A DNA stretch of 64,000 nucleotides from an uncultured virus (IMG/VR IMGVR_UViG_3300048503_000010). Its lineage: Duplodnaviria > Heunggongvirae > Uroviricota > Caudoviricetes. Location of the stretch: positions 1-64,000 of the IMG/VR virus record IMGVR_UViG_3300048503_000010; one strand, given 5' to 3'. Numbering within the stretch: the first letter of the stretch is position 1; every line of letters begins with the position of its first letter. A program made the translations under genes and the position numbers. Below, one piece after another: positions 383-59,550 of this stretch. A model generated the notes under the pieces. That model was not told the origin of the DNA. It searched no databases and worked only from the letters and a program-made list of their open reading frames with translations.

Positions 383-399
383 TATACACTCCCTCGCCC

Positions 400-2560: not shown

Positions 2561-2776
2561 ATAAACAATAGCATAACCTGTTACTCCCTGCACCTGATGC
2601 TATCAAATAAAGATTGTTTGCGTCAAAACGTGTGGGCTGAAACCAAACACTTCCTACACTGGTTAACTCAAAAAACAACGGAACCGGGAACTACACCTAA
2701 AGTGTGTGGTAAGGTGAAGTTCCCGCCTGCGCTAGTTACAAAAGGTATTTGAACTATTGATGCCATGTTTGATCCC

Positions 2777-5772: not shown

Positions 5773-5789
5773 TTTTTCTCCTATTTCAT

Positions 5790-5820
5790 AATGTGGGAGA
5801 AATTTCTCTCTCCCACATAA
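5790..5820 (-). terminator. Hairpin after the capsid gene
   Basis: ATGTGGGAGA...TCTCCCACAT inverted repeat. Confidence 0.5.
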
Positions 5821-5836
5821 TTAGTTAGACTTAGCC

Positions 5837-25763: not shown

Positions 25764-26142
25764 CGGGGTTCATCCAAGTGCAGGAGAAGGCTATTAGTAT
25801 AGTCTAATGTTTAGTGTGGCGGCTAGCACCCCGTTGCGAGTAAGCATGTATGAAGCAATAATTAGTAATATTGGACACGGGTTCGACTCCCGTCGTGTCC
25901 ACCAATAAAATTTATGGGCACGTCAAGGTTTCGACAGTATTGGTTAAGTGTTGTGGACATGCAGGTAGCCGACTACCTTAACAGCGGAAAACAATAACTG
26001 CGAATGAAAATTCAACGTTAATGGAAGCACTTCTTGCAGGAATCACTGTCAGTAATGACAATGAGACTAGCAACGAAATGTTGCCAGAATTGGTTAATGT
26101 AAGTTAACCTGAGATTGGCCCACTTGGAAACAGAACGGGCCA
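25764..26142 (+). ncRNA. ssrA: Circularly permuted (two-piece) tmRNA; outer ends approximate
   Basis: T-arm and acceptor 3' strand with CCA end at 25904, upstream of 5' piece GGGCACGTCAAGGTTTCGAC at 25916; G3.U70 pair; ATAACT-GCG resume site at 26000. Confidence 0.9.
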
Positions 26143-26283
26143 TTAAGATTTAATGAGCCAGCGGTGCTAACATGACCACCAGCATGAGGATAGGAGATGA
26201 AAAATACTCCATCCGGGGTATAGTGCAGAAAAACATGTTTGACAGTTTGCAGAGGGCCGAAAGAGGAAATCTGCTAAATTTAT

Positions 26284-26362
26284 GGTGAGGTTGGCAGAGA
26301 GGTTTAATGCGCTGGACTGTGAATCCAGTTTTCGCACGGTTCGAATCCGGCACTTCACCCCA
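26284..26362 (+). tRNA. tRNA-His(GUG)
   Basis: G-1; CTGGA-CTGTGAA-TCCAG arm; GTTCGAATC; C73-CCA. Confidence 0.88.
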
Positions 26363-26373
26363 GAAAGGAAGAT

Positions 26374-26640
26374 ATGACTACATGGTTTTTGGAAGATGAG
26401 GGTCGAGCACCCCGTATGGATGTAGGAGCACGTCAAGCAGGTATCAACAAACTTGCACGACAAAAGAAGTCTAGCTCTACAGCGGGAAGCAATGCTGGAA
26501 AGCCCTGCAAGTTTCGTGTACAATGTCCTGTGTGTCCAATGGAAGGTGGAGACACAATGTATGCCTTTGTGCAGAAGCGGGACAAAAAGACAATGTGCAG
26601 AGCAGGGCATCCAATTGATTGTTCCGGAGGTTGTAAGTAA
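26374..26640 (+). CDS. Small Cys-rich protein
   Basis: RBS; CPVC and C..GH motifs; lies between tRNAs. Confidence 0.5.
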   Translation: MTTWFLEDEGRAPRMDVGARQAGINKLARQKKSSSTAGSNAGKPCKFRVQCPVCPMEGGDTMYAFVQKRDKKTMCRAGHPIDCSGGCK

Positions 26641-26646
26641 CAGTTT

Positions 26647-26720
26647 CGGGGTAAGGTGTTATGGCAGCATCCGGGTTCTGGAAACCTGTGGTCGTCGTCC
26701 GATTCGACGTACCCCGACCA
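26647..26720 (+). tRNA. tRNA-Pro(UGG), atypical
   Basis: CGGGGTA/TACCCCG-ACCA; loop TCTGGAA; T-loop GTCCGATTC. Confidence 0.7.
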
Positions 26721-26725
26721 AGTTT

Positions 26726-26802
26726 AGGGGAGTAGAGAAGTGGCCTATCTCGCCGCCCTCATAAGGCTGAAATCGGTGGTTCAAATCCACCCTCCCCCAC
26801 CA
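26726..26802 (+). tRNA. tRNA with CAU anticodon (Met/fMet-like)
   Basis: CTCATAA loop; GGTTCAAATCC; 1-72 mismatch; ACCA end. Confidence 0.8.
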
Positions 26803-26846
26803 CTATGTATATGATACAAATCTTACATGAAACGGTATATAATACC

Positions 26847-26921
26847 GGGCAATTAACTCAATGGTAGAGTGCCACTTTTACAAGGTGGAAGTTGCTGGTT
26901 CAAGTCCAGCATTGCCCACCA
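26847..26921 (+). tRNA. tRNA-Val(UAC)
   Basis: Canonical cloverleaf; TTTACAA loop; CCA. Confidence 0.93.
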
Positions 26922-26931
26922 AAGTAACTAT

Positions 26932-27014
26932 GCGAGTATGGCGGAATTGGCAGACGCGATGGGTTTAGAACCCATTGAGCAATCATGGGGGTTCAAGTCC
27001 CTCTGCTCGCACCA
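26932..27014 (+). tRNA. tRNA-Leu(UAG)
   Basis: ATGGG-TTTAGAA-CCCAT; long variable arm; CCA. Confidence 0.92.
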
Positions 27015-27323
27015 AAACACATTCAGGAGGATGCAATGAAAACAACAACGACAGAGATACTCAATAAAGAAGGCAAGGTAATCAAGCGGGTAACAGTTAC
27101 AGAAGACGAGCAGGTTCTAGCGCCGCCAACATATCCGATGCCGTTCTATCCCGTTTACACTCCACAAACGATGCCTCTTTATGATCCTAGGCCCGATATA
27201 GGCCCACCCATCATCACTTGCAATTACTAGACAACAACCAAGATTGTCCGGCGCTATGAACCTGTAAAGGGATGGATAGACGAGAGATTTTCGGGGGCCA
27301 GCCGAAACACGGACAATAAAATT

Positions 27324-27400
27324 GCCCAAGTAGCCCAACTGGAAGAGGCAACGGCCTTAAAAGCCGCACAGTGTGAGTTCGACTCTCTCCTTGGGCACCA
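27324..27400 (+). tRNA. tRNA-Leu(UAA), short variable loop
   Basis: GCCCAAG/CTTGGGC-ACCA; CGGC-CTTAAAA-GCCG. Confidence 0.85.
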
Positions 27401-27507
27401 TGTCCACAATATGTTAGCGAGAAGTCTATCTAAAATAATCCCCGAAAGGGTATTGCTTTTTTATGTGGTATGTGATACAATGGTTATTAATGGAGGGTTG
27501 GCCGAGC

Positions 27508-27597
27508 GGGGAAGTGGCCGAGTGGTTGATGGCTCCGGTCTTGAAAACCGGCATACCCGAAAGGGTATCGTGGGTTCGAATCCTACCTTCCCCGCCA
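27508..27597 (+). tRNA. tRNA-Ser(UGA)
   Basis: CCGGT-CTTGAAA-ACCGG; long variable arm; G73-CCA. Confidence 0.93.
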
Positions 27598-38378: not shown

Positions 38379-38438
38379 TCAAAAAAGTGCTTGACAAACT
38401 AACAAAGATTTGGTAGAGTAATTGAGAGGAGAAAAACA

Positions 38439-39140
38439 ATGTGCAACTTCGCAAGCTTTGTACTAACGAAAGATTCGATTTTTTGGTGCGACGAGAGTGA
38501 TTCTCACGAGGACATCATCAGTGAGAATTCACTTCACGCAGACGGTGTAGCCGGTCCCAATGTTCTTCGAGTGGAAGTATCGCCTACAAAAAACGTAACC
38601 GATTTGATGGACTTTGCGTCTTGGCAATACAAAGTCGATCAGGATATAATGCCGGGTTGGTTTGATGCGGTAACGTGCGAAACCCGTACTAGAGAGGCGT
38701 TACAGGAACGGTTCAAAAGGGGTTTGAAGGTTGGCGGTAGCCTGTATCTAAACGGTTGCACGGGCCTCAAGGAACTCCCGAATGGTTTGAAGGTTGGCGG
38801 TTACCTGTATCTCGACGGTTGCACGGGCCTCAAGGCACTCCCGGATGGTTTGAAGGTTGGCGGTTACCTGTGTCTCGACGGTTGCACGGGCCTCAAGACA
38901 CTCCCGGATGTTTTGAAGGTTGGCGGTAGCCTGTCTCTCGACGGTTGCACGGGCCTCAAGACACTCCCGGATGATTTGAAGGTTGGCGGTGACCTGCTTC
39001 TCGACGGTTGCACGGGCCTCAAGGCACTCCCGGATGGTTTGAAGGTTAGCGGTGGCCTGTCTCTCAACGGTTGCACGGGCCTCAAGGCACTCCCGAAGGG
39101 TTTGAAGGTTGGCGGTAACCTGTATGGTTGGAAGAGGTAG
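38439..39140 (+). CDS. LRR protein copy 1 (94-aa N-domain + 6 repeats + cap)
   Basis: 21-aa repeat GLKVGGxLxLxGCTGLKxLPD. Confidence 0.9.
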   Translation: MCNFASFVLTKDSIFWCDESDSHEDIISENSLHADGVAGPNVLRVEVSPTKNVTDLMDFASWQYKVDQDIMPGWFDAVTCETRTREALQERFKRGLKVGGSLYLNGCTGLKELPNGLKVGGYLYLDGCTGLKALPDGLKVGGYLCLDGCTGLKTLPDVLKVGGSLSLDGCTGLKTLPDDLKVGGDLLLDGCTGLKALPDGLKVSGGLSLNGCTGLKALPKGLKVGGNLYGWKR

Positions 39141-39240
39141 TAGTCAATGGCAAGGAAACAAACTTGACAAGTTTTACAAAGTGTGAGACACTTTGAATGT
39201 AAGGAAAAGTTAACGCAGTACAAACCGAAAAGGAGAGATC

Positions 39241-39492
39241 ATGAAACGTTCTGGACAACTGGGGATGCTAGCAATACTCGCACAGATTACACTTCTGGCA
39301 GTCACTAAGCTAGAAGAGGACATGCTAGAAGCTGGCATATACACGAATTCTCTGGAAGATGCTAAAGAAGCATTGTCCGCAAACGCTGAGGTACTTGACC
39401 AGATGGCACAGGCCGAGTATAACATCGAACAGGCCGAAGCGAAGACGGCTGAAAAGTCTGAAACTAAGCCTACACGGTTCTTTGTAACCTAA
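39241..39492 (+). CDS. Hypothetical protein
   Basis: Promoter near 39164; AGGAG RBS. Confidence 0.55.
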   Translation: MKRSGQLGMLAILAQITLLAVTKLEEDMLEAGIYTNSLEDAKEALSANAEVLDQMAQAEYNIEQAEAKTAEKSETKPTRFFVT

Positions 39493-40194
39493 CGGAGAAG
39501 TAAGACAACTGGCAGAGTAAGACACACGTGCTCTGCCATAGCCGCTCTAATGGTAATGCGGTGACGCCTAAAGACGGATTGAATTCCAATGCAGCGTTAC
39601 TTAAACACATCTAGGAGCGGCTATGGGAGAGCAAGTAAGCTTTCTGATTGGAGAAAAGATGTACAGAATTCTAACCGAAGATGTAAACCGTGATTCGATT
39701 GAAGCTATTCTTGCACGTCACGTTATGGGAGCAACCTTGACGTATGGTTCCGGAATGTACAAGGGAGAGTGGGAAGACAGCCTTGCAATCGACCTTGTGA
39801 ACGTTGGTCCCGAAGTAGTTGAGACAATTGCACAAGAGGTCAAGGTTGCAAACAAGCAAGAATCAATTTTAATCCTTCACTTCCACGCTGACACTCTTTT
39901 CATCTAACGCAGCAACGAGACTGAAAGTCTCCACAACATTTTACCAAGAACTGAGAGGACAAAATGAACATTGGATTACCGGCATACACGCCCGACTTTT
40001 TCCGTGCAGAAATCGCACGGGACACCAATACACTATCAACCGAAACAAACTACACCAAGCGTCTTAAACTTTCCAATCGCATTGCCAGTGCTAAGGCATA
40101 TTTGGCCGACTTGGAAGCAATCGAAGCGCCGAAATATCCAGCAACGTAGTAAAACAATCTCTATAACCGTTTTGGTACTTGAAAGAGGCAGAGA

Positions 40195-40524
40195 ATGACG
40201 GATTTGAGCTATTACATTTACATAGACACATGGTCTGAGGACCGTCTGTCTGGAGAATACGCGAATGCTATGGACCGAGAAGACACACGGGCCATAGAAG
40301 TTCTTGGGAAAGAGTTAGCAAGAAGGCGCATTGCCGGGGAGAAACCGCCCTGTAAGCTAGTGGGCGAAGATGGCAACGTGTTCTCTATCATTGCTCGTGT
40401 AAACCGTACGCTTAAGCAAGCCGGTTTACCTTCACGGGCCAAAGAGTTCATGCACAAGGCTGCACAGTCTAGGGGCTATGATGCGGTACTCACACTGTGC
40501 GATGAATATGTGGAGGTAGAGTAA
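40195..40524 (+). CDS. Hypothetical phage protein
   Basis: C-terminal LVGEDGNVFSII.RV...LK..G motif. Confidence 0.65.
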   Translation: MTDLSYYIYIDTWSEDRLSGEYANAMDREDTRAIEVLGKELARRRIAGEKPPCKLVGEDGNVFSIIARVNRTLKQAGLPSRAKEFMHKAAQSRGYDAVLTLCDEYVEVE

Positions 40525-40875
40525 TGACACAAACATTAGTGGACAAGTCAACAACGTTTTTGCCCGGTGATCGAGTAATCATTTTTAGTATCGATGTACT
40601 GGGAACTATCAAGAGCGTTCGTTATGACTCAGCTAACAAAGCAATCTACACTGTCTTTACTAATGATCCGGCTGCTGTAGAAGACGGAGTATGCTATTGC
40701 CGGGAGTATGAGATCAAGTCATTTGGAGAGCGCCATGACTGAGATACTGGTAACTAATCAGGGACACACCTATGGCTACAAGGCATTCTACAAGGGCCGA
40801 GAGATTGAGTTATTTTTCATTTTTTACTTGACAAACTAACAAAGATTTGGTAGAGTAATTGAGAGGAGAAAAACA

Positions 40876-41893
40876 ATGTGCAACTTCGCAAGCTTTGTAC
40901 TAACGAAAGATTCGATTTTTTGGTGCGACGAGAGTGATTCTCACGAGGACATCATCAGTGAGAATTCACTTCACGCAGACGGTGTAGCCGGTCCCCAATG
41001 TTCTTCGAGTGGAAGTATCGCCTACAAAAAACGTAACCGATTTGATGGACTTTGCGTCTTGGCAATACAAAGTCGATCAGGATATAATGCCGGGTTGGTT
41101 TGATGCGGTAACGTGCGAAACCCGTACTAGAGAGGCGTTACAGGAACGGTTCAAAAGGGGTTTGAAGGTTGGCGGTGACCTGTCTCTCTACGATTGCACG
41201 GGCCTCAAGGCACTCCCGGATGGTTTGAAGGTTGGCGGTTACCTGTTTCTCGACGGTTGCACGGGCCTCAAGGCACTCCCGGATGGTTTGAAGGTTGGCG
41301 GTTACCTGTTTCTCGACGGTTGCACGGGCCTCAAGGCACTCCCGGATGGTTTGAAGGTTGGCGGTGACCTGTATCTAAACGGTTGCACGGGCCTCAAGGC
41401 ACTCCCGGATGGTTTGAAGGTTGGCGGTAAACTGTCTCTCTGCGGTTGCACGGGCCTCAAGGCACTCCCGGATGGTTTGAAGGTTGGCGGTAACCTGTCT
41501 CTCAAGTATTGCACGGGCCTCAAGACACTCCCGGATGGTTTGAAGGTTGGCGGTGACCTGTCTCTCAACGGTTGCACGGGCCTCAAGGCACTCCCGGATG
41601 ATTTGAAGGTTGGCGGTGACCTGCTTCTCGACGGTTGCACGGGCCTCAAGGCACTCCCGGATGGTTTGAAGGTTGGCGGTAGCCTGTCTCTCTGCGGCTG
41701 CACGGGCCTCAAGGAACTCCCGAATGGTTTGACGGTTGGCGGTTACCTGTATCTCGACGGTTGCACGGGCCTTAAGGAACTCCCGAATGGTTTGACGGTT
41801 GGCGGTGACCTGCTTCTCGACGGTTGCACGGGCCTCAAGGCACTCCCGGATGGTTTGAAGGTTAGCGGTGGCCTGTATGGTTGGAAGAGGTAG
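40876..41893 (+). CDS. LRR protein copy 2 (11 repeats; extra C near 40993)
   Basis: N-domain DNA matches copy 1 apart from the indel. Confidence 0.88.
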
Positions 41894-41964
41894 TAGTCAA
41901 TGGCAAGGAAACAAACTTGACAAACTAACAGAGATTTGGTAGGGTAATTGAGAGGAGAAAAACA

Positions 41965-42360
41965 ATGTCGAATCCAGGTGAAAAGACGAGTTTGATTGAC
42001 CTTATCGCAGGAGATGAAGTGATAATCTGTGAAGGGTACGGCACTCGTACCAGAGCCACAATCCAAAGCATTACCCCTGCTGCTAACTTCAAAGTTATCC
42101 AGAAAGGTTCTACAGGCAGCGGAGTAGATACTGTTCGTATCTTCAACAAGAACGGACGTGAGCGCGGAAGCGATATATGGCACGGCGCACACCTTGAACC
42201 GTTTGACAAGGCAGTGTGGGATTGGGAACTGTCTCGCAGAAAGCGTGTATGTTTGACAAAAGCGATTAGGGAAATTGTATGGGATGCATACGACAACGAA
42301 GTTCTTGAGAAAGTGTTATCAATACTGCCAAAGGAGGCAACGAATGGGAGCAGGAGTTAG
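41965..42360 (+). CDS. Hypothetical protein behind the LRR-type promoter module
   Basis: 131 aa; same promoter and RBS as the LRR genes. Confidence 0.7.
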   Translation: MSNPGEKTSLIDLIAGDEVIICEGYGTRTRATIQSITPAANFKVIQKGSTGSGVDTVRIFNKNGRERGSDIWHGAHLEPFDKAVWDWELSRRKRVCLTKAIREIVWDAYDNEVLEKVLSILPKEATNGSRS

Positions 42361-42645
42361 TCAATCAAGGATCAATCAGGCGATACGCAGAGACTTACAG
42401 CACATTCAAAGTGAGTTGTCTGGACACGGTATCCCGTCAATTTACAAGCGTTTTGTTCTGACCGATGGTGAAAATAACAAGGTAGGATTTGTGATTAGTT
42501 ACCGTGTCGTACACGCATCTAATGGAGAATGTGCCGGTTGGCCGGTCTTCTGTGTCATTGACAAAAAGACAGGGAACACAAGAGTTTATGGGTTCTGAAA
42601 ACGATGGGGGTGTCTGGACTAGTAGAAAGCGCGGTATAGCTCGGA

Positions 42646-43002
42646 TTGTGGAGCTATGGAGGGGCTGTGAAAATACCAAGACTACCACAGTTACGGGATC
42701 GTAAAGGGAGATTCAAAAAGGGTTGGACAATCTCCCAAAAAGGTTATCCACGTTATACCAGCGGGCCTTACCGCAATCGGTATGTTCATCGAGTAAAGGC
42801 CGCGCTGATGCTAGGCAGGGAGTTAACCAAAGATGAAGATGTGCATCATGTCAATGGTAACAAGGTTGATTTTAGCACCAGAAATCTTTCCGTCATAGGT
42901 CATACCCAACACGGGTATATATCTGCAAAACAACACTTTTGGGTAACCGTTGTCCTAGAAGAACGAATGAGGAAATGGTATGCCGAGTACAACCTAGTAT
43001 AA
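42646..43002 (+). CDS. HNH endonuclease
   Basis: YVHR...LGREL...EDVHHVNGNK.D....NL. Confidence 0.8.
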   Translation: MWSYGGAVKIPRLPQLRDRKGRFKKGWTISQKGYPRYTSGPYRNRYVHRVKAALMLGRELTKDEDVHHVNGNKVDFSTRNLSVIGHTQHGYISAKQHFWVTVVLEERMRKWYAEYNLV

Positions 43003-43586
43003 GTTCTCACGAAAGGATTAGGAAGAACATGCAGACATTGAATGTGCAAAGCTGGAGTGGGAATCATAAGGTGAAAGTTCGGAAGAATGGAGTAGGGGTT
43101 TTGAATCAAGACGCTTCCAACTTGTTTACATGCGGTCACTGCCACTCGTTAGCACTAGCCGTGAACAAGCTGACCGGCTGGAAAATGTTTGCCGTTGGCG
43201 ATGAGCATTACTCTCCACAACATTTTATCATGTACTGCCCACCGTTGAAAGATTATATCGACGTGAATGGTCCCAAAGCTGTGAGCCGGTATAAGAGATT
43301 AGCAAGCCGACTCTTGGAAGAGTTTGACCCGACTGAGATCGACCAGTTGGAGTTTTATAAAGAACCAGACCCGGAAATGGCTGAGCCCGTTCGCTAAAGC
43401 ATTGTTGATAAAACTTTCTGTAGAACACGACATTGATATTCCGGCTGTAAGGGAACTGGTAAGCAAGCCGAGGCCGAGGCGCAAAAAGAAAATCGTTAAC
43501 AAGGTCTAAAAGATCATCTTGGTACTTGAAGAAAGTGCTTGACAAACTAACAAAGATTTGGTAGGGTAATTGAGAGGAGAAAAACA

Positions 43587-44261
43587 ATGTGCAACTTCGC
43601 AAGCTTTGTGTTGACGAAAGATTCGATTTTCTGGTGCGACGAGAGTGATTCTCATGAGAATATTATCAGTGAGAATTCACTCCACGCAGACGGTGTAGCC
43701 GGTCCCAATGTTCTTCGAGTGGAAATATCGCCTACAAAAAACGTAACCGATTTGATGGACTTTGCGTCTTGGCAATACAAAGTCGATCAGGACATAATGC
43801 CGTGTTGGTTTGATGCGATAACGTGCGAAACCCGTACTAGAGAGGCGTTACAGGAACGGTTCAAAAGGGTTTGACGGTTGGCGGTAACCTGTATCTCGAC
43901 GGTTGCACGGGCCTTAAGGCATTCCCGGATGGTTTGACGGTTGGCGGTAGCCTGTCTCTCTGCGGCTGCACGGGCCTCAAGGAACTCCCGAATGGTTTGA
44001 CGGTTGGCGGTGACCTGTCTCTCGACGGTTGCACGGGCCTCAAGGCACTCCCGGATGGTTTGAAGGTTGGCGGTGGCCTGTCTCTCTACGGCTGCACGGG
44101 CCTCAAGGCATTCCCGGATGGTTTGACGGTTGGCGGTTACCTGTGTCTCTAAACGGTTGCACGGGCCTCAAGACACTCCCGGATGGTTTGAAGGTTGGCG
44201 GTAGCCTGTCTCTCTGCGGTTGCATGGGCTCAAGGAACTCCCGGATGGTTTGAAGCTGTAG
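43587..44261 (+). pseudogene. LRR protein copy 3 (6 repeats, frameshifted; error or decay)
   Basis: Indels near 43867, 44150 and 44229. Confidence 0.75.
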
Positions 44262-44330
44262 TAGTCAATGCAAGGAAATAAACTTGACAAACTAACAAAG
44301 ATTGGTAGGGTAATTGAGAGGAGAAAAACA

Positions 44331-45159
44331 ATGTGCAACTTCGCAAGCTTTGTGTTGACGAAAGATTCGATTTTCTGGTGCGACGAGAGTGATTCTCATG
44401 AGAATATTATCAGTGAGAATTCACTCCACGCAGACGGTGTAGCCGGTCCCAATGTTCTTCGAGTGGAAATATCGCCTACAAAAAACGTAACCGATTTGAT
44501 GGACTTTGCGTCTTGGCAATACAAAGTCGATCAGGACATAATGCCGTGTTGGTTTGATGCGATAACGTGCGAAACCCGTACTAGAGAGGCGTTACAGGAA
44601 CGGTTCAAAAAGGGTTTGACGGTTGGCGGTAACCTGTATCTCGACGGTTGCACGGGCCTTAAGGCATTCCCGGATGGTTTGACGGTTGGCGGTAGCCTGT
44701 CTCTCTGCGGCTGCACGGGCCTCAAGGAACTCCCGAATGGTTTGACGGTTGGCGGTTACCTGTATCTCGACGGTTGCACGGGCCTTAAGGAACTCCCGAA
44801 TGGTTTGACGGTTGGCGGTGACCTGTCTCTCTACGGCTGCACGGGCCTCAAGGAACTCCCGAATGGTTTGACGGTTGGCGGTTACCTGTCTCTCGACGGT
44901 TGCATGGGCCTCAAGACACTCCCGGATGGTTTGAAGGTTGGCGGTAGCCTGTCTCTCTGCGGTTGCATGGGCCTCAAGGAACTCCCGGGATGGTTTGAAG
45001 GTTAGCGGTTACCTGTATCTCGACAGTTGCACGGGACTCAAGGCACTCCCGAATGGTTTGACGGTTGGCGGTAGCCTGTCTCTCTTAGGTTGCACGGGCC
45101 TCAAGGCACTCCCGGATGGTTTGACGGTTGGCGGTTACCTGTATGGTTGGAAGCTGTAG
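44331..45159 (+). CDS. LRR protein copy 4 (8 repeats; extra G near 44988)
   Basis: Same architecture; ends YLYGWKL. Confidence 0.85.
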
Positions 45160-45230
45160 TAGTCAATGGCAAGGAAATAAACTTGACAAACTAACAAAGA
45201 TTTGGTAGGGTAATTGAGAGGAGAAAAACA

Positions 45231-46562
45231 ATGTGCAACTTCGCAAGCTTTGTGTTGACGAAAGATTCGATTTTCTGGTGCGACGAGAGTGATTCTCATG
45301 AGAATATTATCAGTGAGAATTCACTCCACGCAGACGGTGTAGCCGGTCCCAATGTTCTTCGAGTGGAAATATCGCCTACAAAAGACGTGATCGATTTGAT
45401 GGACTTTGCGTCTTGGCAATACAAAGTCGATCAGGACATAATGCCGTGTTGGTTTGATGCGATAACGTGCGAAACCCGTACTAGAGAGGCGTTACAGGAA
45501 CGGTTCAAAAAGGGTTTGAAGGTTGGCGGTAACCTGTCTCTCAAGTATTGCACGGGCCTCAAGGAACTCCCGAATGGTTTGAAGGTTGGCGGTTACCTGT
45601 TTCTCGACGGTTGCACGGGCCTCAAGGAACTCCCGGATGGTTTGAAGGTTGGCGGTGACCTGTCTCTCTACGATTGCACGGGCCTCAAGGCACTCCCGGA
45701 TGGTTTGAAGGTTGGCGGTTACCTGTCTCTCTACGGTTGCACGGGCCTCAAGGAACTCCCGGATGGTTTGAAGGTTGGCGGTAGCCTGTCTCTCTACGGT
45801 TGCACGGGCCTCAAGGAACTCCCGGATGGTTTTAAGGTTAGCGGTGACCTGTCTCTCAAGTATTGCACGGGCCTCAAGACACTCCCGGATGGTTTGAAGG
45901 TTGGCGGTGACCTGTCTCTCAACGGTTGCACGGGCCTCAAGGAACTCCCGGATGGTTTGAAGGTTGGCGGTGACCTGTCTCTCAACGGTTGCACGGGCCT
46001 CAAGGCATTCCCGGATGGTTTGAAGGTTGGCGGTTACCTGTCTCTCGACGGTTGCACGGGTCTCAAGGCACTCCCGGATGGTTTGAAGGTTGGCGGTAAA
46101 CTGTCTCTCTGCGGTTGCACGGGCCTCAAGGCACTCCCGGATGGTTTGAAGGTTGGCGGTAAACTGTCTCTCTGCGGTTGCACGGGCCTCAAGGCACTCC
46201 CGGATGGTTTGAAGGTTAGCGGTGACCTGTCTCTCTTCGGTTGCACGGGCCTCAAGGCATTCCCGGATGGTTTGAAGGTTAGCGGTCACCTGTCTCTCTA
46301 CGGTTGCACGGGCCTCAAGGAACTCCCGGATGGTTTGAAGGTTGGCGGTATCCTGTCTCTCTTCGGTTGCACGGGCCTCAAGGCACTCCCGGATGGTTTT
46401 AAGGTTGGCGGTAGCCTGTGTCTCGACAGTTGCACGGGCCTCAAGGCACTCCCGAATGGTTTGAAGGTTGGCGGTTACCTGTCTCTCTACGGTTGCACGG
46501 GCCTCAAGGAACTCCCGAATGGTTTGAAGGTTGGCGGTAGCCTGTATGGTTGGAAGCTGTAG
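45231..46562 (+). CDS. LRR protein copy 5 (16 repeats)
   Basis: 443 aa = 94 + 16x21 + 13. Confidence 0.92.
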   Translation: MCNFASFVLTKDSIFWCDESDSHENIISENSLHADGVAGPNVLRVEISPTKDVIDLMDFASWQYKVDQDIMPCWFDAITCETRTREALQERFKKGLKVGGNLSLKYCTGLKELPNGLKVGGYLFLDGCTGLKELPDGLKVGGDLSLYDCTGLKALPDGLKVGGYLSLYGCTGLKELPDGLKVGGSLSLYGCTGLKELPDGFKVSGDLSLKYCTGLKTLPDGLKVGGDLSLNGCTGLKELPDGLKVGGDLSLNGCTGLKAFPDGLKVGGYLSLDGCTGLKALPDGLKVGGKLSLCGCTGLKALPDGLKVGGKLSLCGCTGLKALPDGLKVSGDLSLFGCTGLKAFPDGLKVSGHLSLYGCTGLKELPDGLKVGGILSLFGCTGLKALPDGFKVGGSLCLDSCTGLKALPNGLKVGGYLSLYGCTGLKELPNGLKVGGSLYGWKL

Positions 46563-46972
46563 TAGTCAATGGCAAGGAAACAAACGGAAAGGAGAAAATC
46601 TATGGGATACTATATTGAGACAAAAGGAAATTTTGGCAAAGCGGCAACGATTGCCGCTGAATGGGATGGAATTGTCCTAAAATATTCACCAAGAGCCTAC
46701 AGCGATATACCAGAAGGCAAGGCACTTATTGTAGTAGTTGACAACGGAATGTTTGAAGCTGCTGCATTCTGTTATGATGAGGAAGAGTTTAAGTATTTCA
46801 CTGATTCTAGCGACCCGCGCCCCAAGCTGTATGTACTTCTTGATCGTGAGTTGGCAGAACAACTTTCTGGATATAATCGAAAAAAGACTTGACAATGCAG
46901 GACAAACGTGGTATACTGTACTAGAATCAGAAGGGTGCTTAGGGGATAGGCACAGAAAGGGTGTAAAGATTT

Positions 46973-48339: not shown

Positions 48340-48861
48340 ATGCAGGCACTAACTCCAATCGAGATCAAGGCGCTCATCCATGAGGTTCCTAACGAACGCT
48401 GGAAGTTGCTTATCAAAATGGGTTTTCTCCACGGGCTAAGAGTGTCGGAGCTAATAAACCTTACTGGAGAAGATATTCGTGATGGTTATGTGAGAGTACA
48501 ACGATTGAAAGGTTCTCTTAAAACTATCCAGCCGTTCGTTAAGCACCCTGATCCTGATTTAGATGAGTATGAAGGTCTAACCAAACTTCTTGGTACTCTT
48601 GGGTCTAAAGAGCGTTTGTTCAAAATCACCAGATTTGGGGTGTACAATATGTTTCAAAGAGCCGGACAGCGTGCCGGGATTCCGAAGCACAAACTACACC
48701 CCCATGCTCTTAAACATGCCTGTGCGATGGTTGCTATCGACAAGATAGGCATTCAGAGAGTAAGGCAGTATCTGGGACATAAGAACATTGGCAGCACAGG
48801 AGCGTATCTGCAAGAATCTGACGAAAGTGCCAGCAAAGCATTTGCGGGAGCAGTTGTATGA
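48340..48861 (+). CDS. Tyrosine recombinase, catalytic domain only
   Basis: GLRVSE, LKGS, HPHALKH, LGH...T..Y. Confidence 0.88.
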   Translation: MQALTPIEIKALIHEVPNERWKLLIKMGFLHGLRVSELINLTGEDIRDGYVRVQRLKGSLKTIQPFVKHPDPDLDEYEGLTKLLGTLGSKERLFKITRFGVYNMFQRAGQRAGIPKHKLHPHALKHACAMVAIDKIGIQRVRQYLGHKNIGSTGAYLQESDESASKAFAGAVV

Positions 48862-49325
48862 AAAAGACTACAAAACATGTTCCCGAGTACCAAACTTGTG
48901 ACTACCTGAAGTATTATCTCGATCCAGTTGCAGCTAAAAATAGATATGTCTTGGCGGCAAAAGTTTTAAAAAAGTATGCAAAAGAATTCGACAGCATAGC
49001 ATTTACTGGGATGTCGGGAGCACTAATTGCTCCAGCGATTGCCAGTCGGATCAATAAGCCCTTGATTATGGTGAGAAAGTCTACACGAAATTGCCACTCT
49101 TCTCATAGGGTAGAAGGAAACAGAGCATGTAAGAAGTATGTTATAGTGGATGACCTTATATCGAGCGGAGAGACGGCAACGAACATACAGAAAGCTATTC
49201 ATAAGTTTGCTCCAGATGCCCGTTGTATAGGAGTCTTGCAGGTAAACGAATTGTCGAATAGTTTAGATAACAAGCTGACAACCTCTGGCGCTGGCAGCAT
49301 GCTTGAGATTCTTGACTTTAACTAA
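48858..49325 (+). CDS. Type I phosphoribosyltransferase
   Basis: VRK loop; VIVDDLISSGET. Confidence 0.85.
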   Translation: MKKTTKHVPEYQTCDYLKYYLDPVAAKNRYVLAAKVLKKYAKEFDSIAFTGMSGALIAPAIASRINKPLIMVRKSTRNCHSSHRVEGNRACKKYVIVDDLISSGETATNIQKAIHKFAPDARCIGVLQVNELSNSLDNKLTTSGAGSMLEILDFN

Positions 49326-52392: not shown

Positions 52393-52799
52393 AAACACTT
52401 ATCGGCATAGTTGTTTTAGGATTACTCTGTGCAACACACGTTGCAGATGCTAGAAACCCTAATACGGTTCCGCTTAAGACGGCTCCGCCGAAGGCTCAAC
52501 CGCTAACATATCAACAGGAATTCGATCAATCTCTTGATACACTGAATAGTGTAATGGCAGTCTACTCTAGGATGGACTGCCATGATCCATCAATAGATAC
52601 AATTTCAGACGCACTTAAAGAAGATTTAGTAAAATTTTCTCATGTGTATGTGAGTATGCCTTCAGATGCTAACACGACACGCGACATAGAGATAAGTTTT
52701 GGTGTTGTAGATTTGGCAAAACTACTCGTAGATGACAAAGCAAAGTGTCGAGCAGAAGATAACCCACCGGTTAAGCCGGATGGTAAGTTTAGCTCGTAA
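52389..52799 (+). CDS. Secreted hypothetical protein
   Basis: N-terminal signal peptide. Confidence 0.55.
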   Translation: MKTLIGIVVLGLLCATHVADARNPNTVPLKTAPPKAQPLTYQQEFDQSLDTLNSVMAVYSRMDCHDPSIDTISDALKEDLVKFSHVYVSMPSDANTTRDIEISFGVVDLAKLLVDDKAKCRAEDNPPVKPDGKFSS

Positions 52800-52809
52800 T
52801 GGAGAGACA

Positions 52810-53853
52810 ATGAATCTATCAGACTACTTGGATACCGACAAACTCGCTAATTATCTCAAGCTAGGGCTTGTGATGAGGAACAAGCATCCTGATTTGCCCC
52901 TATCTCTTTACTGCTATGGACGTAGGGCAGTCTACGATAATATATGGGACTCTGTTACCAAGAAGTGTCGTGGATTGATTGTGGAGAATGACACCGACAA
53001 GATCATAGCTCGCCCATTTGAGAAGTTTTTCGCCTATGAAACAGAAGGACAGGAAGAAACCTACGGACGCAATGTCGAATCTATTGAGAAGCTTTACGGC
53101 CCCCCTACTATCACAGAGAAGATCAACGGTAATCTGGGAATCTTCTGGAACTATAAAGGAGAGTGGGGAATTGCCAGCAAAGGTTCCTTCAGTTCTGTAC
53201 ATGCAAAGTGGGCAAAAGAATGGTTTCAAGGTAATCTTTCTTATGGAATAATTAACAGACCTAGTAATTTTGTATGGCCCATAGGTTATACACCCATATT
53301 TGAAATGATTTGTCAAGACATTCAACCGCACTGTATCACCTATCCGGCAGATGGTTTGGTACTTCTTGCTTTGATAAACAAAGAAACTGGGGAGGAACTT
53401 AACTATAAGGATATGTTAGACTATGCTCTACTTAATGGTATTTCTGTCACAGCAAGGTATTGTATTCCTTTAAAAGATGCAATAGAGATAGACAGACCTG
53501 GACATGAGGGTTATGTAGCCACGTATGCTATACCGGTGCACGCTCCGCTGAAGTTGAAGATTAAGCATCCCAGTTTCCTTACAACTCGTAAAAAGTTCTA
53601 TGAGGATATTGAACTGGCGAAGCTAAATCTTCCGGTTATAGATGATATGTATGAGGCAGTAAGGAAGCATTCAGCAGAACTTGTTAAACGAGCATTGGTA
53701 GAATTTACTCTACGAAAAGAGTTTGCAGAGTTTTTTAACCTGCCTGAGAACAAGGTATACGCTCCAGTTTGTTTTGCCATGATGGACACAGGAATTTCTG
53801 GAAAACATCAAGACGCAATCTGGAGAGTAGTAGGAAACTTGAGGGGAAAATGA
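52810..53853 (+). CDS. T4 Rnl1-like RNA ligase
   Basis: CRGLI, ARPFEKFF, EKING, SKGSF, EGYV, KIK. Confidence 0.88.
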   Translation: MNLSDYLDTDKLANYLKLGLVMRNKHPDLPLSLYCYGRRAVYDNIWDSVTKKCRGLIVENDTDKIIARPFEKFFAYETEGQEETYGRNVESIEKLYGPPTITEKINGNLGIFWNYKGEWGIASKGSFSSVHAKWAKEWFQGNLSYGIINRPSNFVWPIGYTPIFEMICQDIQPHCITYPADGLVLLALINKETGEELNYKDMLDYALLNGISVTARYCIPLKDAIEIDRPGHEGYVATYAIPVHAPLKLKIKHPSFLTTRKKFYEDIELAKLNLPVIDDMYEAVRKHSAELVKRALVEFTLRKEFAEFFNLPENKVYAPVCFAMMDTGISGKHQDAIWRVVGNLRGK

Positions 53854-58368: not shown

Positions 58369-59550
58369 ATGGAGAAGAAAGCTAATCATCAAGCAAATAT
58401 TGTGGTTGTGAAGGAGGTTCTGCCTCACACCAACGCGGACACGTTAGAGATAATTCCTATAGGTGAATATCAAGTTGTGTCCAAAAAAGGACAGTTTAAG
58501 GTTGGAGAGTTCGCAGTTTACATTCAACCAGATTCGGTCGTACCACAAACAGAATCTTTCAGGTTTATCTGGGAAAGTTATGTAGACCCTATTAATTCTG
58601 ATGCCCCTATCTCTGACAGAAGGCGTCGAATTACTGTTCGTAAGTTCCGTGGCGAGTGGTCTGAAGGACTGCTTATGCCAGTGTACGATTTTGATGAATT
58701 GGTAGACAGTACCTTAACTAGACAGTTTGTAGAGTCTGACTGGCGTGAAGGAACAGATGTATCTGATACACTTGGAATCACACACTATGACCCGGACGAA
58801 GGAGTAGAACGTACAGACGGAGATCAGGGAGCAGCACCCAGAGGCAAGCGCCGTTGGCCGCGCTCTATCAATGGCTGGATTAAGATGATCTGGCGGTATG
58901 TTACCTTCACCCGTGGACAGGAGAAATTCCTAGAAGATGCTGGTAAACTATGTATACCAATTTATGACGTAGATGCTCTGAAAAATTACCCTAACGTCTT
59001 CCGAGAAGGTGAACCAGTCATAGTCACAGAGAAGATTCATGGCAGCAATGCGCGGTTTATTTTCACGGATGGTATGCTGTACGCTGGCTCTCATAAGCAG
59101 TGGACAAGTCCGAGTTCCAACTCAATCTTTAGGAAGGTGCTGAAGTCTCAGCCTTGGATTGAAGAATGGTGCCGAGCACATGAGGACTACGTTCTTTGGG
59201 GAGAGGTAACTCCTACCCAAAAGGGCTATGAATACGGAAGCAAAGACCCACAACTGTTCGTCTTTGATGTGCGTCATCCAGATGGTCACTGGCTCAGCTA
59301 TGACAAGGAAGATGAGAGTGTTACTCTGCAACAGTTGTGGACACGCTCTGTGCCGATGCTTTTCTTTAAGGTTCCATACAGCAAAGAAGGTATTATGAAG
59401 ATTGTTGATGGGATTTCATATGTGCATGGTGCTACAAATATGAGAGAAGGCGTGGTCATCAAAGCGTTTCCGGAGAGACATGTTCGCGGCGTCGGGAGAG
59501 CACAATTGAAGATTGTGAGCAAAGTTTTTCTAGAAAAGGATAATAAGTAG
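58369..59550 (+). CDS. RNA ligase, DRB0094/Rnl2-like
   Basis: PH.NAD.LE, RG..SEGL, TEKIHG.N, GE, FD, REGVV. Confidence 0.88.
   Translation: MEKKANHQANIVVVKEVLPHTNADTLEIIPIGEYQVVSKKGQFKVGEFAVYIQPDSVVPQTESFRFIWESYVDPINSDAPISDRRRRITVRKFRGEWSEGLLMPVYDFDELVDSTLTRQFVESDWREGTDVSDTLGITHYDPDEGVERTDGDQGAAPRGKRRWPRSINGWIKMIWRYVTFTRGQEKFLEDAGKLCIPIYDVDALKNYPNVFREGEPVIVTEKIHGSNARFIFTDGMLYAGSHKQWTSPSSNSIFRKVLKSQPWIEEWCRAHEDYVLWGEVTPTQKGYEYGSKDPQLFVFDVRHPDGHWLSYDKEDESVTLQQLWTRSVPMLFFKVPYSKEGIMKIVDGISYVHGATNMREGVVIKAFPERHVRGVGRAQLKIVSKVFLEKDNK

Follow-up and report, generated by a model that had tools for sequence, protein, structure and literature searches.

Positions 38439-46562 of a 64,000-nucleotide window (the whole stretch of DNA analysed) from an uncultured soil tailed phage hold five genes on the plus strand that begin almost identically and then diverge into leucine-rich repeat (LRR) arrays of differing length and content. 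What does a phage gain from such a family, and how is its diversity produced? The window belongs to a contig of about 90 kb (G000), the phage genome being about 90-95 kb, and the host is probably an Acidobacterium.

Gene copies and their condition

Each cassette consists of a near-identical sigma-70-like promoter and ribosome site, a 94-codon head and a run of 63-bp LRR units (TRF period 63), and every array is closed by a partial unit, GLKVGGxLYGWK[R/L]-stop (Table 1). Copies c1 to c5 hold 6, 11, 6, 8 and 16 full units, respectively. An alignment of the first 282 bases and 49 upstream bases of the five copies gives a mean column identity of 96%, and the heads show a pN/pS of 0.11-0.17. The head is under purifying selection; that it is near-invariant over its 94 residues had been described in a first-pass annotation of this DNA. 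In sum, the locus is a phage multigene family that joins a constant head to a hypervariable LRR solenoid.

Table 1. Coordinates of the repeat genes and their associated elements in the window.
Feature	Position	Strand	Basis or content
Promoter/RBS cassette, copy 1: TTGACA, 17 nt, TG-n-TAGAGT, GAGAGGAG, ATG	38390..38438	+	Alignment, pattern match
c1, intact, 233 aa	38439..39140	+	Head 38439-38720; six LRR units 38721-39098; end cap 39099-39140
Promoter/RBS cassette, copy 2	40827..40875	+	Alignment, pattern match, promoter scan
c2, frame-broken	40876..41893	+	Eleven LRR units 41159-41851, then cap
Promoter/RBS cassette no. 6, ahead of unrelated 131-aa ORF (41965-42360)	41916..41964	+	Pattern match
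Promoter/RBS cassette, copy 3	43538..43586	+	Alignment, pattern match
c3, damaged	43587..44261	+	Six units, several indels
Promoter/RBS cassette, copy 4, one T shorter	44283..44330	+	Alignment, pattern match
c4, frame-broken	44331..45159	+	Eight units 44613-45117, then cap
Promoter/RBS cassette, copy 5	45182..45230	+	Alignment, pattern match
c5, intact, 443 aa	45231..46562	+	Head 45231-45512; sixteen LRR units 45513-46520; cap
Conserved trailer TAGTCAATGGCAAGGAAA(C/T)AAAC	46563..46585	+	Also at 39141, 41894, 44262, 45160

The earlier count of five paralogs and their unit numbers stands, but that annotation missed the broken frames of c2, c3 and c4; as assembled, only c1 and c5 are open. The c2 head equals the c1 head except that a run of C near 40993 is one base longer, an insertion that breaks the frame and is absent from a near-identical phage contig (G001). 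The c4 head is identical to that of c3, and the frame of c4 is lost where unit 6 ends in a surplus G (about 44987). These two single-base homopolymer frameshifts are probably sequencing errors. The c3 copy has lost one base at the head/LRR junction (about 43866), gained two in unit 5 and lost one in unit 6; the two-base gain leads to a stop after YLCL, and the last unit is 27 bp shorter. A 188-aa version of c3 (P0002), found on four other contigs, has the junction in frame and shares the premature stop. The exact c1 protein occurs on 11 public contigs and is identical in G001. Should the frame breaks in three of the five copies prove genuine, the greater part of the "repertoire" would be non-functional.

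Could the copies instead be a single locus that the assembler duplicated or scrambled, with sequencing noise passing for variation? G000 is indeed error-prone, with 69 homopolymer indels relative to G001 in bases 27-7758, a frameshifted DNA polymerase and five indels clustered in and just after c3. Moreover, contigs break inside the gene in 20 of 58 related loci, and G001 has two copies only. Against this, there are two head types separated by 9-10 synonymous differences, unique genes lie between the copies, the flanks are unique, c1 is identical on its 11 contigs, and the variation is structured by codon rather than random. A contig from a second metagenome (L065) also runs from c2 unit 9 through the spacer and 50 nt into c3 at 99.9%. 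Second assemblies reproduce all of c1, units 1-5 and 9-11 of c2, units 11-16 of c5 and the c2-to-c3 spacer; the unit order of c2.6-8, c3, c4 and c5.1-10 found no confirmation in any of them. An assembly artefact is thus extremely improbable, and the five copies are taken as genuine.

The promoter/RBS cassettes of the five copies differ by merely 1-2 bases in alignment, and their pattern matches only the six positions of Table 1 in the whole 90-kb contig. A promoter scan found 10 of 12 matches and a TG ahead of the -10 at 38391 and 40828; promoter-like sites across the region are not enriched (17 versus 14.2 in shuffles), and terminator-like sites number 2 versus 13.4 expected. The trailer is identical over 23-30 nt behind c1, c2 and c5 and adjoins the next promoter where copies are tandem. 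Neither a stem-loop (folding z +1.34) nor a dyad was found in the boundary element or trailer. The genes lie among small ORFs on the replication strand, outside the structural block, and the terminase/portal block is on the other strand, 20 kb away. Early expression, as first suggested, would fit the promoter-like elements and this position. No conserved partner gene was found.

Fold and variable positions of the repeats

The c5 array matches Pfam LRR_EndoS (E 2e-16; 60.7 bits against a cut-off of 27.9), and sequence matches in the PDB include 8z5u_0, 4fs7, RPP1 and SspH1 (SspH1 LRR E 3e-6). An AF2 model of c1 (pLDDT 92.6, pTM 0.85) places strands at positions 3-4 and 8-9 of every unit, and its Foldseek PDB matches, among those listed, are all LRR proteins. 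Profile matches and the predicted structure agree in making the repeats a true LRR solenoid.

Selection was analysed in 44 of the 47 full units, with c3.5, c3.6 and c4.6 (units 5 and 6 of c3 and unit 6 of c4) excluded for their indels. Across these 44 units, 37 of the 63 columns never change. Codons 7, 9, 11 and 12 carry most of the variation, and codons 3, 18 and 21 vary less; nucleotide diversity is 0.309 at the 12 hypervariable bases and 0.049 at the 51 scaffold bases. Codons 7, 9, 11 and 12 together give a pN of 0.36 and a pS of 0.09, whereas codons 7, 9 and 11 individually give pN values of 0.46, 0.31 and 0.44 and pS values of 0.01, 0 and 0.02, respectively. Over the whole unit, pN/pS is 3.55 (44 of 47 units). 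Synonymous divergence is 0.16 between the two head types versus 0.034 in the repeats. The first-pass description of a near-invariant scaffold with variable x positions in the xLxLxx strand is borne out here by the per-position codon analysis and the modelled strands. From LRR geometry and the DSSP pattern of the model, the variable residues would face outward on one surface.

Unit mosaicism and the origin of diversity

Among the 44 units, 36 are distinct. Seven sets of units are identical at the DNA level, of which six span different genes and four of those six occupy different ranks. The modules singled out earlier were all located: NLSLKY in c2.6 and c5.1, DLSLYD in c2.1 and c5.3 (identical DNA), KLSLCG in c2.5, c5.10 and c5.11 (identical DNA), and DDLKVGGDLLLD in c1.4/5 and c2.7/8, with c1.5 and c2.8 the same at the DNA level. 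For 32.8 of 44 units the nearest neighbour belongs to a different gene, the same as when labels are shuffled (33.8, sd 2.9). The units are therefore mosaic between copies, in agreement with the repeat shuffling or gene conversion that had been suspected.

Variants in other assemblies follow the same pattern. G001, 99.9% identical elsewhere, holds two copies in total: c1 unchanged and one hybrid of c2 units 1-5 with c5 units 12-16 and the c5 cap, whose junction lies inside the unit common to c2.5 and c5.11, and it lacks the intervening 4.1 kb. Public assemblies contain ten more protein variants, each a mosaic built from these LRR units. Chimeric or collapsed assembly of short reads could account for such variants and for the G001 hybrid.

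Judged from sequence, the diversity reflects germline paralog mosaicism by substitution and homologous recombination, rather than retroelement mutagenesis or VLR-like assembly. Diversifying selection would retain point substitutions that change amino acids; whole 63-bp units would move between copies, and the scaffold be homogenised, through homologous recombination or gene conversion; and recombination between copies would alter both unit number and copy number. A dedicated mutator is absent: no RVT_1 match to a reverse transcriptase was found in G000-G003 (G001, G002 and G003 being 95-100% complete), no dCMP/cytidine deaminase match was found in G000, and no headless donor cassette or external template was found, the scaffold motif occurring 46 times, always inside the five genes. 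The lamprey-VLR analogy drawn by the first-pass annotation fails as a mechanism. Because the copies are complete (promoter, start and stop) and neither donor cassettes nor a cytidine deaminase was found, the paralog repertoire is inherited, not assembled.

The codon palette does recall targeted mutagenesis by a diversity-generating retroelement (DGR). The variable codons are AAC-like: codon 7 is GAC, TAC, AGC, AAC, GGC, CAC or ATC, codon 11 is GAC, TAC, AAC, TGC or TTC, and codon 9 is T-N-T, a set that mutating the adenines of AAC and TAT would be predicted to yield. Besides the missing reverse transcriptase in all four contigs and the confinement of all 46 scaffold motifs to the genes, seven scaffold adenines (e.g., both in AAG of codon 17) are fixed in 44 units, the CTT, AAG, TTA and GGC variants require non-A changes, and arrays of 6-16 units in five genes misfit one template with one variable region. 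The DGR reading is close to refuted.

Integron- or shufflon-like shuffling is likewise improbable, if less so. Here, a small tyrosine recombinase (48340-48861) would act on the promoter/trailer element: a 173-aa Phage_integrase-family protein (E 8e-19) lies 1.8 kb downstream of c5 and is conserved beside the head genes of the relative G002, 9 of 58 viral loci have a tyrosine or serine recombinase no more than a few kb away (six query proteins only), and every cassette is bounded by one element of about 70 bp that also precedes the unrelated ORF. However, the G002 synteny is not independent evidence, and several of the neighbouring recombinases are ordinary full-length integrases, probably of temperate phages. 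The cassettes are all in direct orientation, so inversion is impossible, and the boundary element has no stem-loop or dyad. The one well-resolved rearrangement (G001) joins inside a shared LRR unit rather than at a cassette boundary, and the mosaic variants likewise switch at units.

The head domain family

No relatives of the head were found in Pfam (even at E 10), PHROGs, NCBIfam or the PDB, and fold searches gave a best Foldseek E of 0.63, a best VIA Z of 4.5 and no match in a PDB profile search. At E <= 1e-3, the head nonetheless defines a family of 949 clusters. Among the best 150 matches, 140 begin at residue 1 with a Met-Cys start. In an alignment of 149 sequences 40-62% identical to the window's head, C2, S6, T10, S22, H23, N41, E46, P49, W62, D67, Q68, D69, P72 and W74 are at least 92% conserved. 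The head is nearly always N-terminal and almost phage-only; in sampled cellular genomes it appears in 1 of 201 and 1 of 401, one and the same genome, beside terminase genes. Two to four copies occur in 6 of 58 viral loci. A search for its other repeat partners, which had been recommended earlier, returned many different types: LRRs of 19, 20 and 21 residues, an 8-9-residue beta-type repeat, pentapeptide, DUF4774-like and helical repeats.

Proposed function

The reading we favour, at somewhat better than even confidence for the explanation as a whole, is a variable LRR binder that brings targets to the constant head. Each gene stands alone, with a host-type promoter and a ribosome site of its own, and encodes a two-part protein, head then solenoid, that is probably cytoplasmic. 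The head would have to sit at the very N-terminus, with its Met-Cys start, invariant His23 and Glu46, and Asp67-Gln-Asp69, and would do one common job on the bound target, such as catalysis or docking to a host machine. The 21-residue-unit solenoid, hypervariable at the outward positions 7, 9, 11 and 12 of xLxLxx, would be the recognition part, and several copies with different arrays would make a repertoire against polymorphic targets. The likeliest targets are host proteins encountered at an early stage of infection, possibly the defence proteins proposed at first. Since no fold or family could be recognised for the head, the "effector" role then given to it is a guess. By analogy, the logic of a binder with a constant domain gains support from LRRs of the same class fused elsewhere to NEL E3 ligase, DnaJ, DUF4256, DUF6745, PcfJ and ToxN domains.

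A simpler account is a stoichiometric inhibitor or decoy, in which the LRR coil alone sequesters a host protein and the head is a folding cap or a solubility or oligomerisation domain. Many of the proteins with which phages counter host defences simply bind their targets, and the head could be assigned to no enzyme family or fold. The c1 model shows the head packed directly against the first LRR unit, the two forming a single confidently predicted body (pTM 0.85) in the manner of LRR N-caps. Yet a mere cap needs neither 14 positions conserved to at least 92%, many of them polar, nor a Met-Cys start fixed at residue 1 (140 of 150 proteins). The head is also joined to LRR, pentapeptide, 8-residue beta and helical repeats, which are unrelated folds, and this argues for a job independent of the repeat. 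This account is therefore considered rather unlikely.

It is very unlikely that the proteins are adhesins carried on the virion or on a surface and broaden the host range in the way of variable tail-fibre tips or decoration proteins. Receptor-binding proteins are typically hypervariable, and LRR proteins are often adhesins, e.g., internalins and a Flavobacterium psychrophilum surface LRR locus (Altae-Tran et al., 2020; PMC10392669). The present genes, however, each have a host-type promoter and lie on the replication strand with small early-type ORFs, 20 kb from the opposite-strand terminase/portal block. Their products are small, c1 and c5 have no structural-protein PHROG match, and no signal peptide or anchor was seen when the sequences were read by eye.

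Comparison with known systems

A variable LRR binder with a constant head resembles, in its repeats, the LRR-NEL (IpaH/SspH-type) effectors and other bacterial LRR-plus-effector fusions, which are of the same LRR class (at most 56-64% identity to the c5 array, E down to 1e-121) and also join the LRR to a constant domain, with the LRR picking the target on which the constant domain acts. In IpaH/SspH, the LRR selects the substrate. The phage head is unrelated to NEL and comes first, with the LRR last, and the phage genes are multi-copy, mosaic at the unit level and without secretion context.

Lamprey and hagfish VLRs share the LRR scaffold, variability at concave-face strand positions, and arrays that vary in unit number and draw on a shared unit pool; hagfish VLR 2o6r is among the weak Foldseek fold matches (E 0.51). 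In VLRs, somatic assembly involving a cytidine deaminase inserts headless donor cassettes into a germline gene that is itself incomplete, whereas the phage copies are complete genes and neither donor cassettes nor a deaminase was found. DGRs share the NNC-codon residue palette on a binding surface; the phage differs in its invariant scaffold adenines and in having no reverse transcriptase or template repeat.

Poxviruses and giant viruses carry ankyrin-repeat multigene families with a constant domain (PRANC/F-box; the Bodo saltans virus array). They likewise pair a constant domain with a stack of variable repeats, change fast at their binding positions and expand and contract in copy number like an accordion. 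The phage family differs in its LRR repeat, its constant domain, its bacterial-virus setting and the many repeat folds that are swapped.

Two further published systems bear on the locus itself. PeSL cassettes of T4-type hyperplastic regions repeat an early promoter flanking non-essential genes, and recombination between nearby repeats deletes the intervening genes (Arbiol et al., 2010; PMC2839356). The repeated sigma-70-like promoter cassette is similar, here also ahead of an unrelated ORF, but the present element has no stem-loop terminator and the junction falls inside coding repeats, not the cassette. In F. psychrophilum, paralogous LRR genes lie in tandem and are hypervariable at certain positions of the unit, and strains differ through recombination in how many units they have and in what order (Altae-Tran et al., 2020; PMC10392669). 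The two loci are thus alike in tandem LRR paralogs, hypervariable positions and unit recombination; the F. psychrophilum proteins are bacterial cell-surface proteins on the host side and lack this head, whereas the present family is phage-borne, headed and, by its sequence, probably cytoplasmic.

Organization of the Gene Copies

The five paralogous genes (c1 to c5; c2.5 stands for unit 5 of copy 2) lie within a plus-strand block of replication-type genes, surrounded by small unannotated ORFs. Each has a 94-codon head followed by 63-bp LRR units, and both the unit counts and the recurrent modules named in the first-pass annotation proved correct. When the copies are aligned, the 59 upstream bases and the first 290 bases of each show 96% mean column identity. 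In the shared upstream element, CTTGACAAACTAACAAAGATTTGGTAG(A/G)GTAATTGAGAGGAGAAAAACA-ATG, a perfect -35 box is separated by 17 nt from a weak -10 box with a TG extension, and the ribosome site is strong; the whole contig has six copies of the element, one ahead of each of the five genes and one ahead of an unrelated ORF. The arrays end in a partial unit, GLKVGGxLYGWK(R/L), two stop codons, and a conserved trailer of 20-30 nt, which in tandem copies abuts the next promoter directly. All 46 occurrences of the unit scaffold motif in the contig fall within the five genes, which make up 5.1% of its length.

With the PeSL cassettes of T4-type phages, this element has a promoter-like part in common. 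However, PeSL cassettes join an early promoter to a stem-loop terminator, whereas the element studied here has no stem-loop: none was found in the inter-cassette sequence (MFE -8 kcal/mol; shuffled sequences average -11.1), and 2 terminators were found against 13.4 expected. Searching 21 neighboring ORFs against all loci with phmmer revealed no conserved partner gene, the matches being to the related phage at locus L012 and, once, to locus L009.

Coordinates of the features discussed (window positions unless another record is named)
Feature	Position	Strand	Detail
Terminal 25-base sequence	1-25; 89992-90016 of the full record		identical, inverted relative to each other
Stretch rich in gaps	27-7758		relative to G001
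HNH endonuclease gene	6556-7446		
Terminase and portal genes	10.6-15.6 kb	minus	
Replication-type genes	22 kb onward	plus	DNA polymerase, seven tRNA genes, phosphoesterases, helicase, primase, exonuclease, RNA ligases
DNA polymerase	22414-24763	plus	ORFs of 546 aa and 259 aa, overlapping at 23984-24054
tRNA cluster	25812-27597	plus	His, Pro, Met, Val, Leu-TAG, Leu-TAA, Ser
c1	38439 (start)	plus	6 units
c2	40876 (start)	plus	11 units
ORF with the shared upstream element	41965		unrelated to the five genes
HNH endonuclease gene	42646-43002		c2-c3 spacer
c3	43587 (start)	plus	6 units
c4	44331 (start)	plus	8 units
c5	45231 (start)	plus	16 units
Stretch shared with G001	45891-85690		39.8 kb, 99.9% identity, zero gaps
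Tyrosine recombinase	48340-48861		173 aa, catalytic domain only
Phosphoribosyltransferase gene	48858-49325		
RNA ligase genes	52732-53853; 58369-59550	plus	
Large terminase of relative G002	G002:C1:19478-22435		matches in two pieces, residues 2-288 and 261-675
Tandem paralogs at locus L042	12492-16255 of L042		phrog_7964/phrog_5070

The Phage Genome and its Relatives

The full record (G000) is 90,016 bp long, with a completeness of 94% as estimated by CheckV, and the window is its first 64 kb. Judged by the large terminase, the nearest isolate is Tunturiibacter phage Tunturi_3 (56% identity), described as a 97.6-kb podovirus that infects an Acidobacterium (PMC11924767). The sole match to the head in a cellular genome is in a Terracidiphilus MAG, where it lies beside terminase genes at a contig end. 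Together, these two observations make an acidobacterial host likely.

The near-identical record G001 (89,414 bp, with terminal repeats) is rated 100% complete. In the relative G002, the terminase is 50-62% identical, and two head genes with 19-residue repeats occupy the syntenic position. A search of phage records with the DNA as query gave no match, and one with the head protein returned an unannotated contig of a fecal phage, 40% identical. When other strains were sought by exact pattern, viral contigs yielded only G001, and metagenomes yielded two contigs, both from one metagenome. The two pieces of the G002 terminase match lie about 840 bases apart inside a single 992-aa open frame, which suggests an intein or other in-frame insertion.

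Several further features of the record were observed. Its ends have a primer-like sequence resembling a SMART-type amplification oligo and are library adapters rather than phage sequence. Alignment of the gap-rich stretch next to the first of them with G001 opens 69 gaps over 7.7 kb, nearly all of them single-base insertions and mostly in G/C or A/T runs; the stretch is of low quality, and many of its ORFs are probably artificially broken. The division of the DNA polymerase is likewise probably a sequence error and not a true split gene, since a base near 24035 is present in G000 and absent from G001. The permuted tmRNA that ARAGORN places over the tRNA-His gene is probably a false call. The two RNA ligases and the phosphoribosyltransferase of the replication block may form a tRNA-repair or nucleotide-salvage set.

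Copies With Broken Frames as Assembled

As assembled, only c1 and c5 have intact open reading frames, a point that the first-pass annotation overlooked. There is one extra C near 40993, within a C run of c2, and one extra G near 44987, within a G run of c4. These two breaks look like assembly errors of G000, because it differs from G001 by single-base homopolymer insertions (69 within bases 27-7758) and by the split polymerase, and because the c2-type head of G001 is without the extra C. Phase variation through homopolymer slippage was rejected as an account of the breaks: the runs are only 2-5 bases long, and the 69 comparable indels lie elsewhere in the genome. In c3 there are -1, +2, and -1 indels, at about 43866, 44146, and 44228, and a last unit short by 27 bp, and two further single-base losses follow in the trailer and promoter behind it. 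A c3-type version of 188 aa, present on four other contigs, is in frame at the junction yet stops prematurely at the same place, behind unit 5. The truncation of c3 is therefore probably real, although the stretch around it is poorly assembled.

A Common Pool of Repeat Units

Unit-level analysis covered 44 of the 47 full units, with the three that contain indels left out. Thirty-six of the 44 are distinct, and there are seven DNA-identical sets, six of which span different genes. Four of these six pair units at different ranks (c2.5 = c5.10 = c5.11; c1.5 = c2.8; c2.1 = c5.3; c2.10 = c4.3), and the others are c3.1 = c4.1 and c3.2 = c4.2. Matches from c2 to c5 are non-colinear, with units 1, 2, 5, and 7 of c2 corresponding to units 3, 2, 10/11, and 7/8 of c5. 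The nearest neighbor lies in another gene for 32.8 of the 44 units, compared with 33.8 (sd 2.9) when gene labels are shuffled; 340 of 1000 shuffles gave a count at or below that observed, no different from chance. The copies therefore draw their units from one common pool.

The related sequences show the same units in other combinations. G001 has an unchanged c1 and only one other copy, a hybrid in which c2 units 1-5 are joined to c5 units 12-16 inside the unit common to c2.5 and c5.11; the intervening 4.1 kb (c3, c4, the HNH gene of the c2-c3 spacer, and other ORFs) is absent from it. The two protein clusters (90% identity) centered on c1 and c3 add ten variants, each a mosaic of these units; examples are protein P0192 (c2.1-2, then c1.3-6) and protein P0194, found on four contigs (c4.1-3, then c2.11 and the c2 cap). 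The mosaics and the hybrid fit homologous recombination between copies, although short-read assemblers yield the same patterns, and unit order in c2.6-8, c3, c4, and c5.1-10 is that of the G000 assembly only. In another metagenome, one contig links c2 unit 9 to c3 across the intervening spacer (99.9% identity), which shows that the longer arrangement exists outside G000.

The LRR Array and its Variable Positions

The 47 units are of 21 residues, with the consensus GLKVGGxLxLxGCTGLKxLPD, in keeping with the LxxLxLxx(N/C)xL-type core and the 20-30-residue unit length of LRR proteins, and Pfam LRR_EndoS is matched at 60.7 bits by c5 and 40.8 bits by c2 (cut-off 27.9). An AF2 model of c1, built from a 21-sequence alignment (mean pLDDT 92.6, pTM 0.85), has two-residue strands at positions 3-4 and 8-9 of every unit, as in an LRR solenoid, where a short strand from each unit contributes to a parallel sheet. 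All PDB matches of this model in Foldseek are LRR proteins: the flagellar-motor protein 8z5u_0 (top match, E 9e-4), TpLRR, the RPP1 and NRG1 LRRs, XopL, and internalins. The sequence of c5 also matches 8z5u_0 (E 2e-21). A PADLOC match to JAB at c5 residues 338-354 (E 1.5e-4, 19.4 bits) was discounted as weak and within the LRR part.

Within the 63-bp unit, 37 columns are invariant across the 44 units, and variability peaks at bases 1 and 2 of codons 7 and 11 and at base 2 of codon 9. These positions alternate along the strand with the core leucines 8 and 10, and in standard LRR geometry such positions point outward from the ligand-binding sheet. That geometry and the DSSP pattern of the model predict that the variable residues share one surface. 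The pN and pS values are 0.46 and 0.01 at codon 7, 0.31 and 0 at codon 9, and 0.44 and 0.02 at codon 11; for the four hypervariable codons (7, 9, 11, and 12) pooled, they are 0.36 and 0.09. Over the whole unit pN/pS is 3.55, compared with 0.11-0.17 in the head. Between heads of the c1/c2 type and the c3/c4/c5 type, synonymous divergence reaches 0.16, a value five times as high as synonymous diversity in the repeats (0.034). The repeats are thus homogenized at silent sites, indicating concerted evolution, while a few codons are driven apart. A single codon is used per residue at the variable positions, D always being GAC and Y always TAC, for example.

Elsewhere, the same LRR class is fused to NEL E3 ligase, DnaJ, DUF4256, DUF6745, PcfJ-like, and ToxN/SpoVG domains, and it is therefore a widely used targeting module for a constant partner. 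LRR-NEL effectors carry a C-terminal NEL domain (PF14496) with a catalytic Cys. Only the LRR part is common to these E3 ligases and c1-c5, in which Pfam identifies no NEL domain.

Mechanisms of Diversification

The variable codons resemble the product of a diversity-generating retroelement (DGR), as NNC derived from AAC. However, no reverse transcriptase (PF00078, E ≤ 1) was found in G000 or in the related records G001-G003, which are 95-100% complete, and no template repeat, which in a DGR differs from the variable repeat at adenines alone, is present in the contig, where no unit copy lies beyond the five genes. Seven scaffold adenines are invariant, and some variants fall at non-adenine positions. 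A DGR was rejected on these grounds.

The first-pass annotation had loosely likened the genes to lamprey VLRs. In the VLR system, an incomplete germline gene is flanked by headless donor LRR cassettes, and an AID/APOBEC-like cytidine deaminase drives assembly. Here every copy is a complete gene, running from a promoter and start codon of its own through head and cap to a stop; the contig has no headless donor cassettes, and the one deaminase family searched (PF00383, E ≤ 1) has no match in G000 at 94% completeness. VLR-like assembly was therefore rejected, and the likeness holds for the scaffold and the location of the variability but not for the mechanism.

Shuffling of cassettes by a site-specific recombinase would be suggested by proximity, as the tyrosine recombinase gene of the window lies 1.8 kb downstream of the array and tyrosine or serine recombinases occur within a few kb of head genes at 9 of 58 viral loci. 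This is nevertheless unlikely because the cassettes are all direct and the observed junctions lie inside units. The 173-aa enzyme is conserved beside the head genes of G002, and the genome looks lytic-type. The cassette anatomy and diversification by recombination between copies are stated with high confidence.

A Family of Head Domains

A search with the head against 1.84 billion cluster representatives returned 949 proteins at E ≤ 1e-3, of which 346 also passed E ≤ 1e-10. Most are short (100-330 aa), and the match begins at residue 1 in 140 of the 150 best. Among 149 aligned members, Met1, Cys2, Ala5, Ser6, Thr10, Ser22, His23, Ile26, Asn41, Glu46, Pro49, Trp62, Asp67, Gln68, Asp69, Pro72, and Trp74 are at least 92% conserved, with His23 and Glu46 at 100%. 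The family is thus defined by an extreme N-terminal domain of ~90 residues with a Met-Cys start, S22-H23, E46-x2-P49, W62, and D67-Q-D69-x2-P72-x-W74, and all five copies possess these residues.

AF2 predicts a small alpha/beta domain for the head (pLDDT 90.6). PHROGs, NCBIfam, PADLOC, and Pfam gave no match for it, Pfam not even with the threshold relaxed to E 10. In the PDB there was no significant relative, the best Foldseek E-value being 0.63 and a profile giving 0 matches to PDB sequences. For a possible kinship with Ntn-type or Cys-His-acid hydrolases, Pfam, NCBIfam, and the PDB offered no sequence match, and the conserved Cys2, His23, and Glu46 are no more than a lead. Structural comparison by VIA-align with 48,161 chains gave at best an RNase PH-like domain, with rmsd 3.3 across 74 residues and a Z of 4.5, lower than the background typical of this tool. 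The best ESM Atlas score (0.86) is below the usable range, and in BFVD the head matches only two uncharacterized phage proteins.

The head is followed by a C-terminal tandem array, and searching the head for other repeat partners, as had been proposed, revealed many types besides the 21-residue LRR of c1-c5. The arrays consist of LRRs (19, 20, or 21 residues), short repeats of 8-9 residues (GSATVxAx, for example), pentapeptide repeats, DUF4774-like GTATAG repeats, or helical WDAARDAA-type repeats, and in each type a few positions differ between units. Among members such as P0042, P0071, P0109, P0127, and P0133, the C-terminal cap seems to go with the repeat class: it is A-V/L-x-I-D-R-S/T-G ... 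C-x-V-G behind 8-residue repeats and G-E/D-D-G-I-x-P-D-V-x-Y behind GTATAG repeats.

Two to four copies are present at 6 of the 58 viral loci, including four in tandem at L042, where five tandem paralogs of a family without assigned function follow as a second multigene array in the same region. At 20 of the 58 the open frame reaches the contig end, as multi-copy repeats are expected to break assemblies. Sampling of genomes from the family and phylum of the Terracidiphilus MAG gave one carrier of the head among 201 and one among 401, the same genome both times.

Proposed Function and Comparison With Known Systems

In the reading we lean towards, somewhat more than evenly, the array would capture a polymorphic target, for which a host protein is the most plausible candidate, while the head would do one common thing to whatever is captured, so that several differently tuned copies per phage would amount to a repertoire of cytoplasmic adaptors. 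This reading is favored because the head is strictly N-terminal, dense in invariant polar residues, and indifferent to the solenoid that follows; because the head is under purifying selection and the strand positions are under diversifying selection; because there are several tuned copies per phage with early-type neighbors and host-type promoters; and because the same LRR class serves as a targeting module on other constant domains. That the head itself is an effector or docking module is a more tentative proposal, somewhat short of an even chance. From conservation, Cys2-His23-Glu46 is offered as a lead to a candidate catalytic or metal centre.

A bolder version is speculative and rather doubtful. 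In it, the head would be a small enzyme or docking module of a new kind, which requires its N-terminal cysteine to be free, and the 949 clusters would be a phage counterpart of F-box or NEL substrate receptors, in which any fast-evolving solenoid (LRR, pentapeptide, beta-helix, or helical) delivers a host protein to one inactivating activity; phages would keep several tuned copies and reshuffle the units by recombination. The main rival to the adaptor repertoire is a plain stoichiometric inhibitor to which the head is a mere cap, and we judge it improbable. A structural adhesin, recombinase shuffling, a DGR, and an artefact are each minor alternatives.

If the adaptor reading is true, these genes would represent a large unexplored class of phage host-takeover or counter-defense proteins whose targets are readable by pull-down, and the head would be a new small domain with likely N-terminal-cysteine chemistry. 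They would also offer natural, compact cysteine-ladder LRR scaffolds with defined variable positions, usable as binder libraries. The family further accounts for a practical problem, the frequent breaking of phage contigs at head genes.

No phage family of this kind and no description of the head domain was found in the literature, subscription journals aside. A constant domain joined to variable repeats is a hallmark of host-parasite arms races, as in F-box proteins, NEL effectors, poxvirus ankyrins, and VLRs, and the ankyrin families of giant viruses follow the same logic. A bacterial tandem LRR locus with unit recombination is already described (PMC10392669). The logic of the phage genes is thus known from other systems, and the domain chemistry of the head is possibly new.
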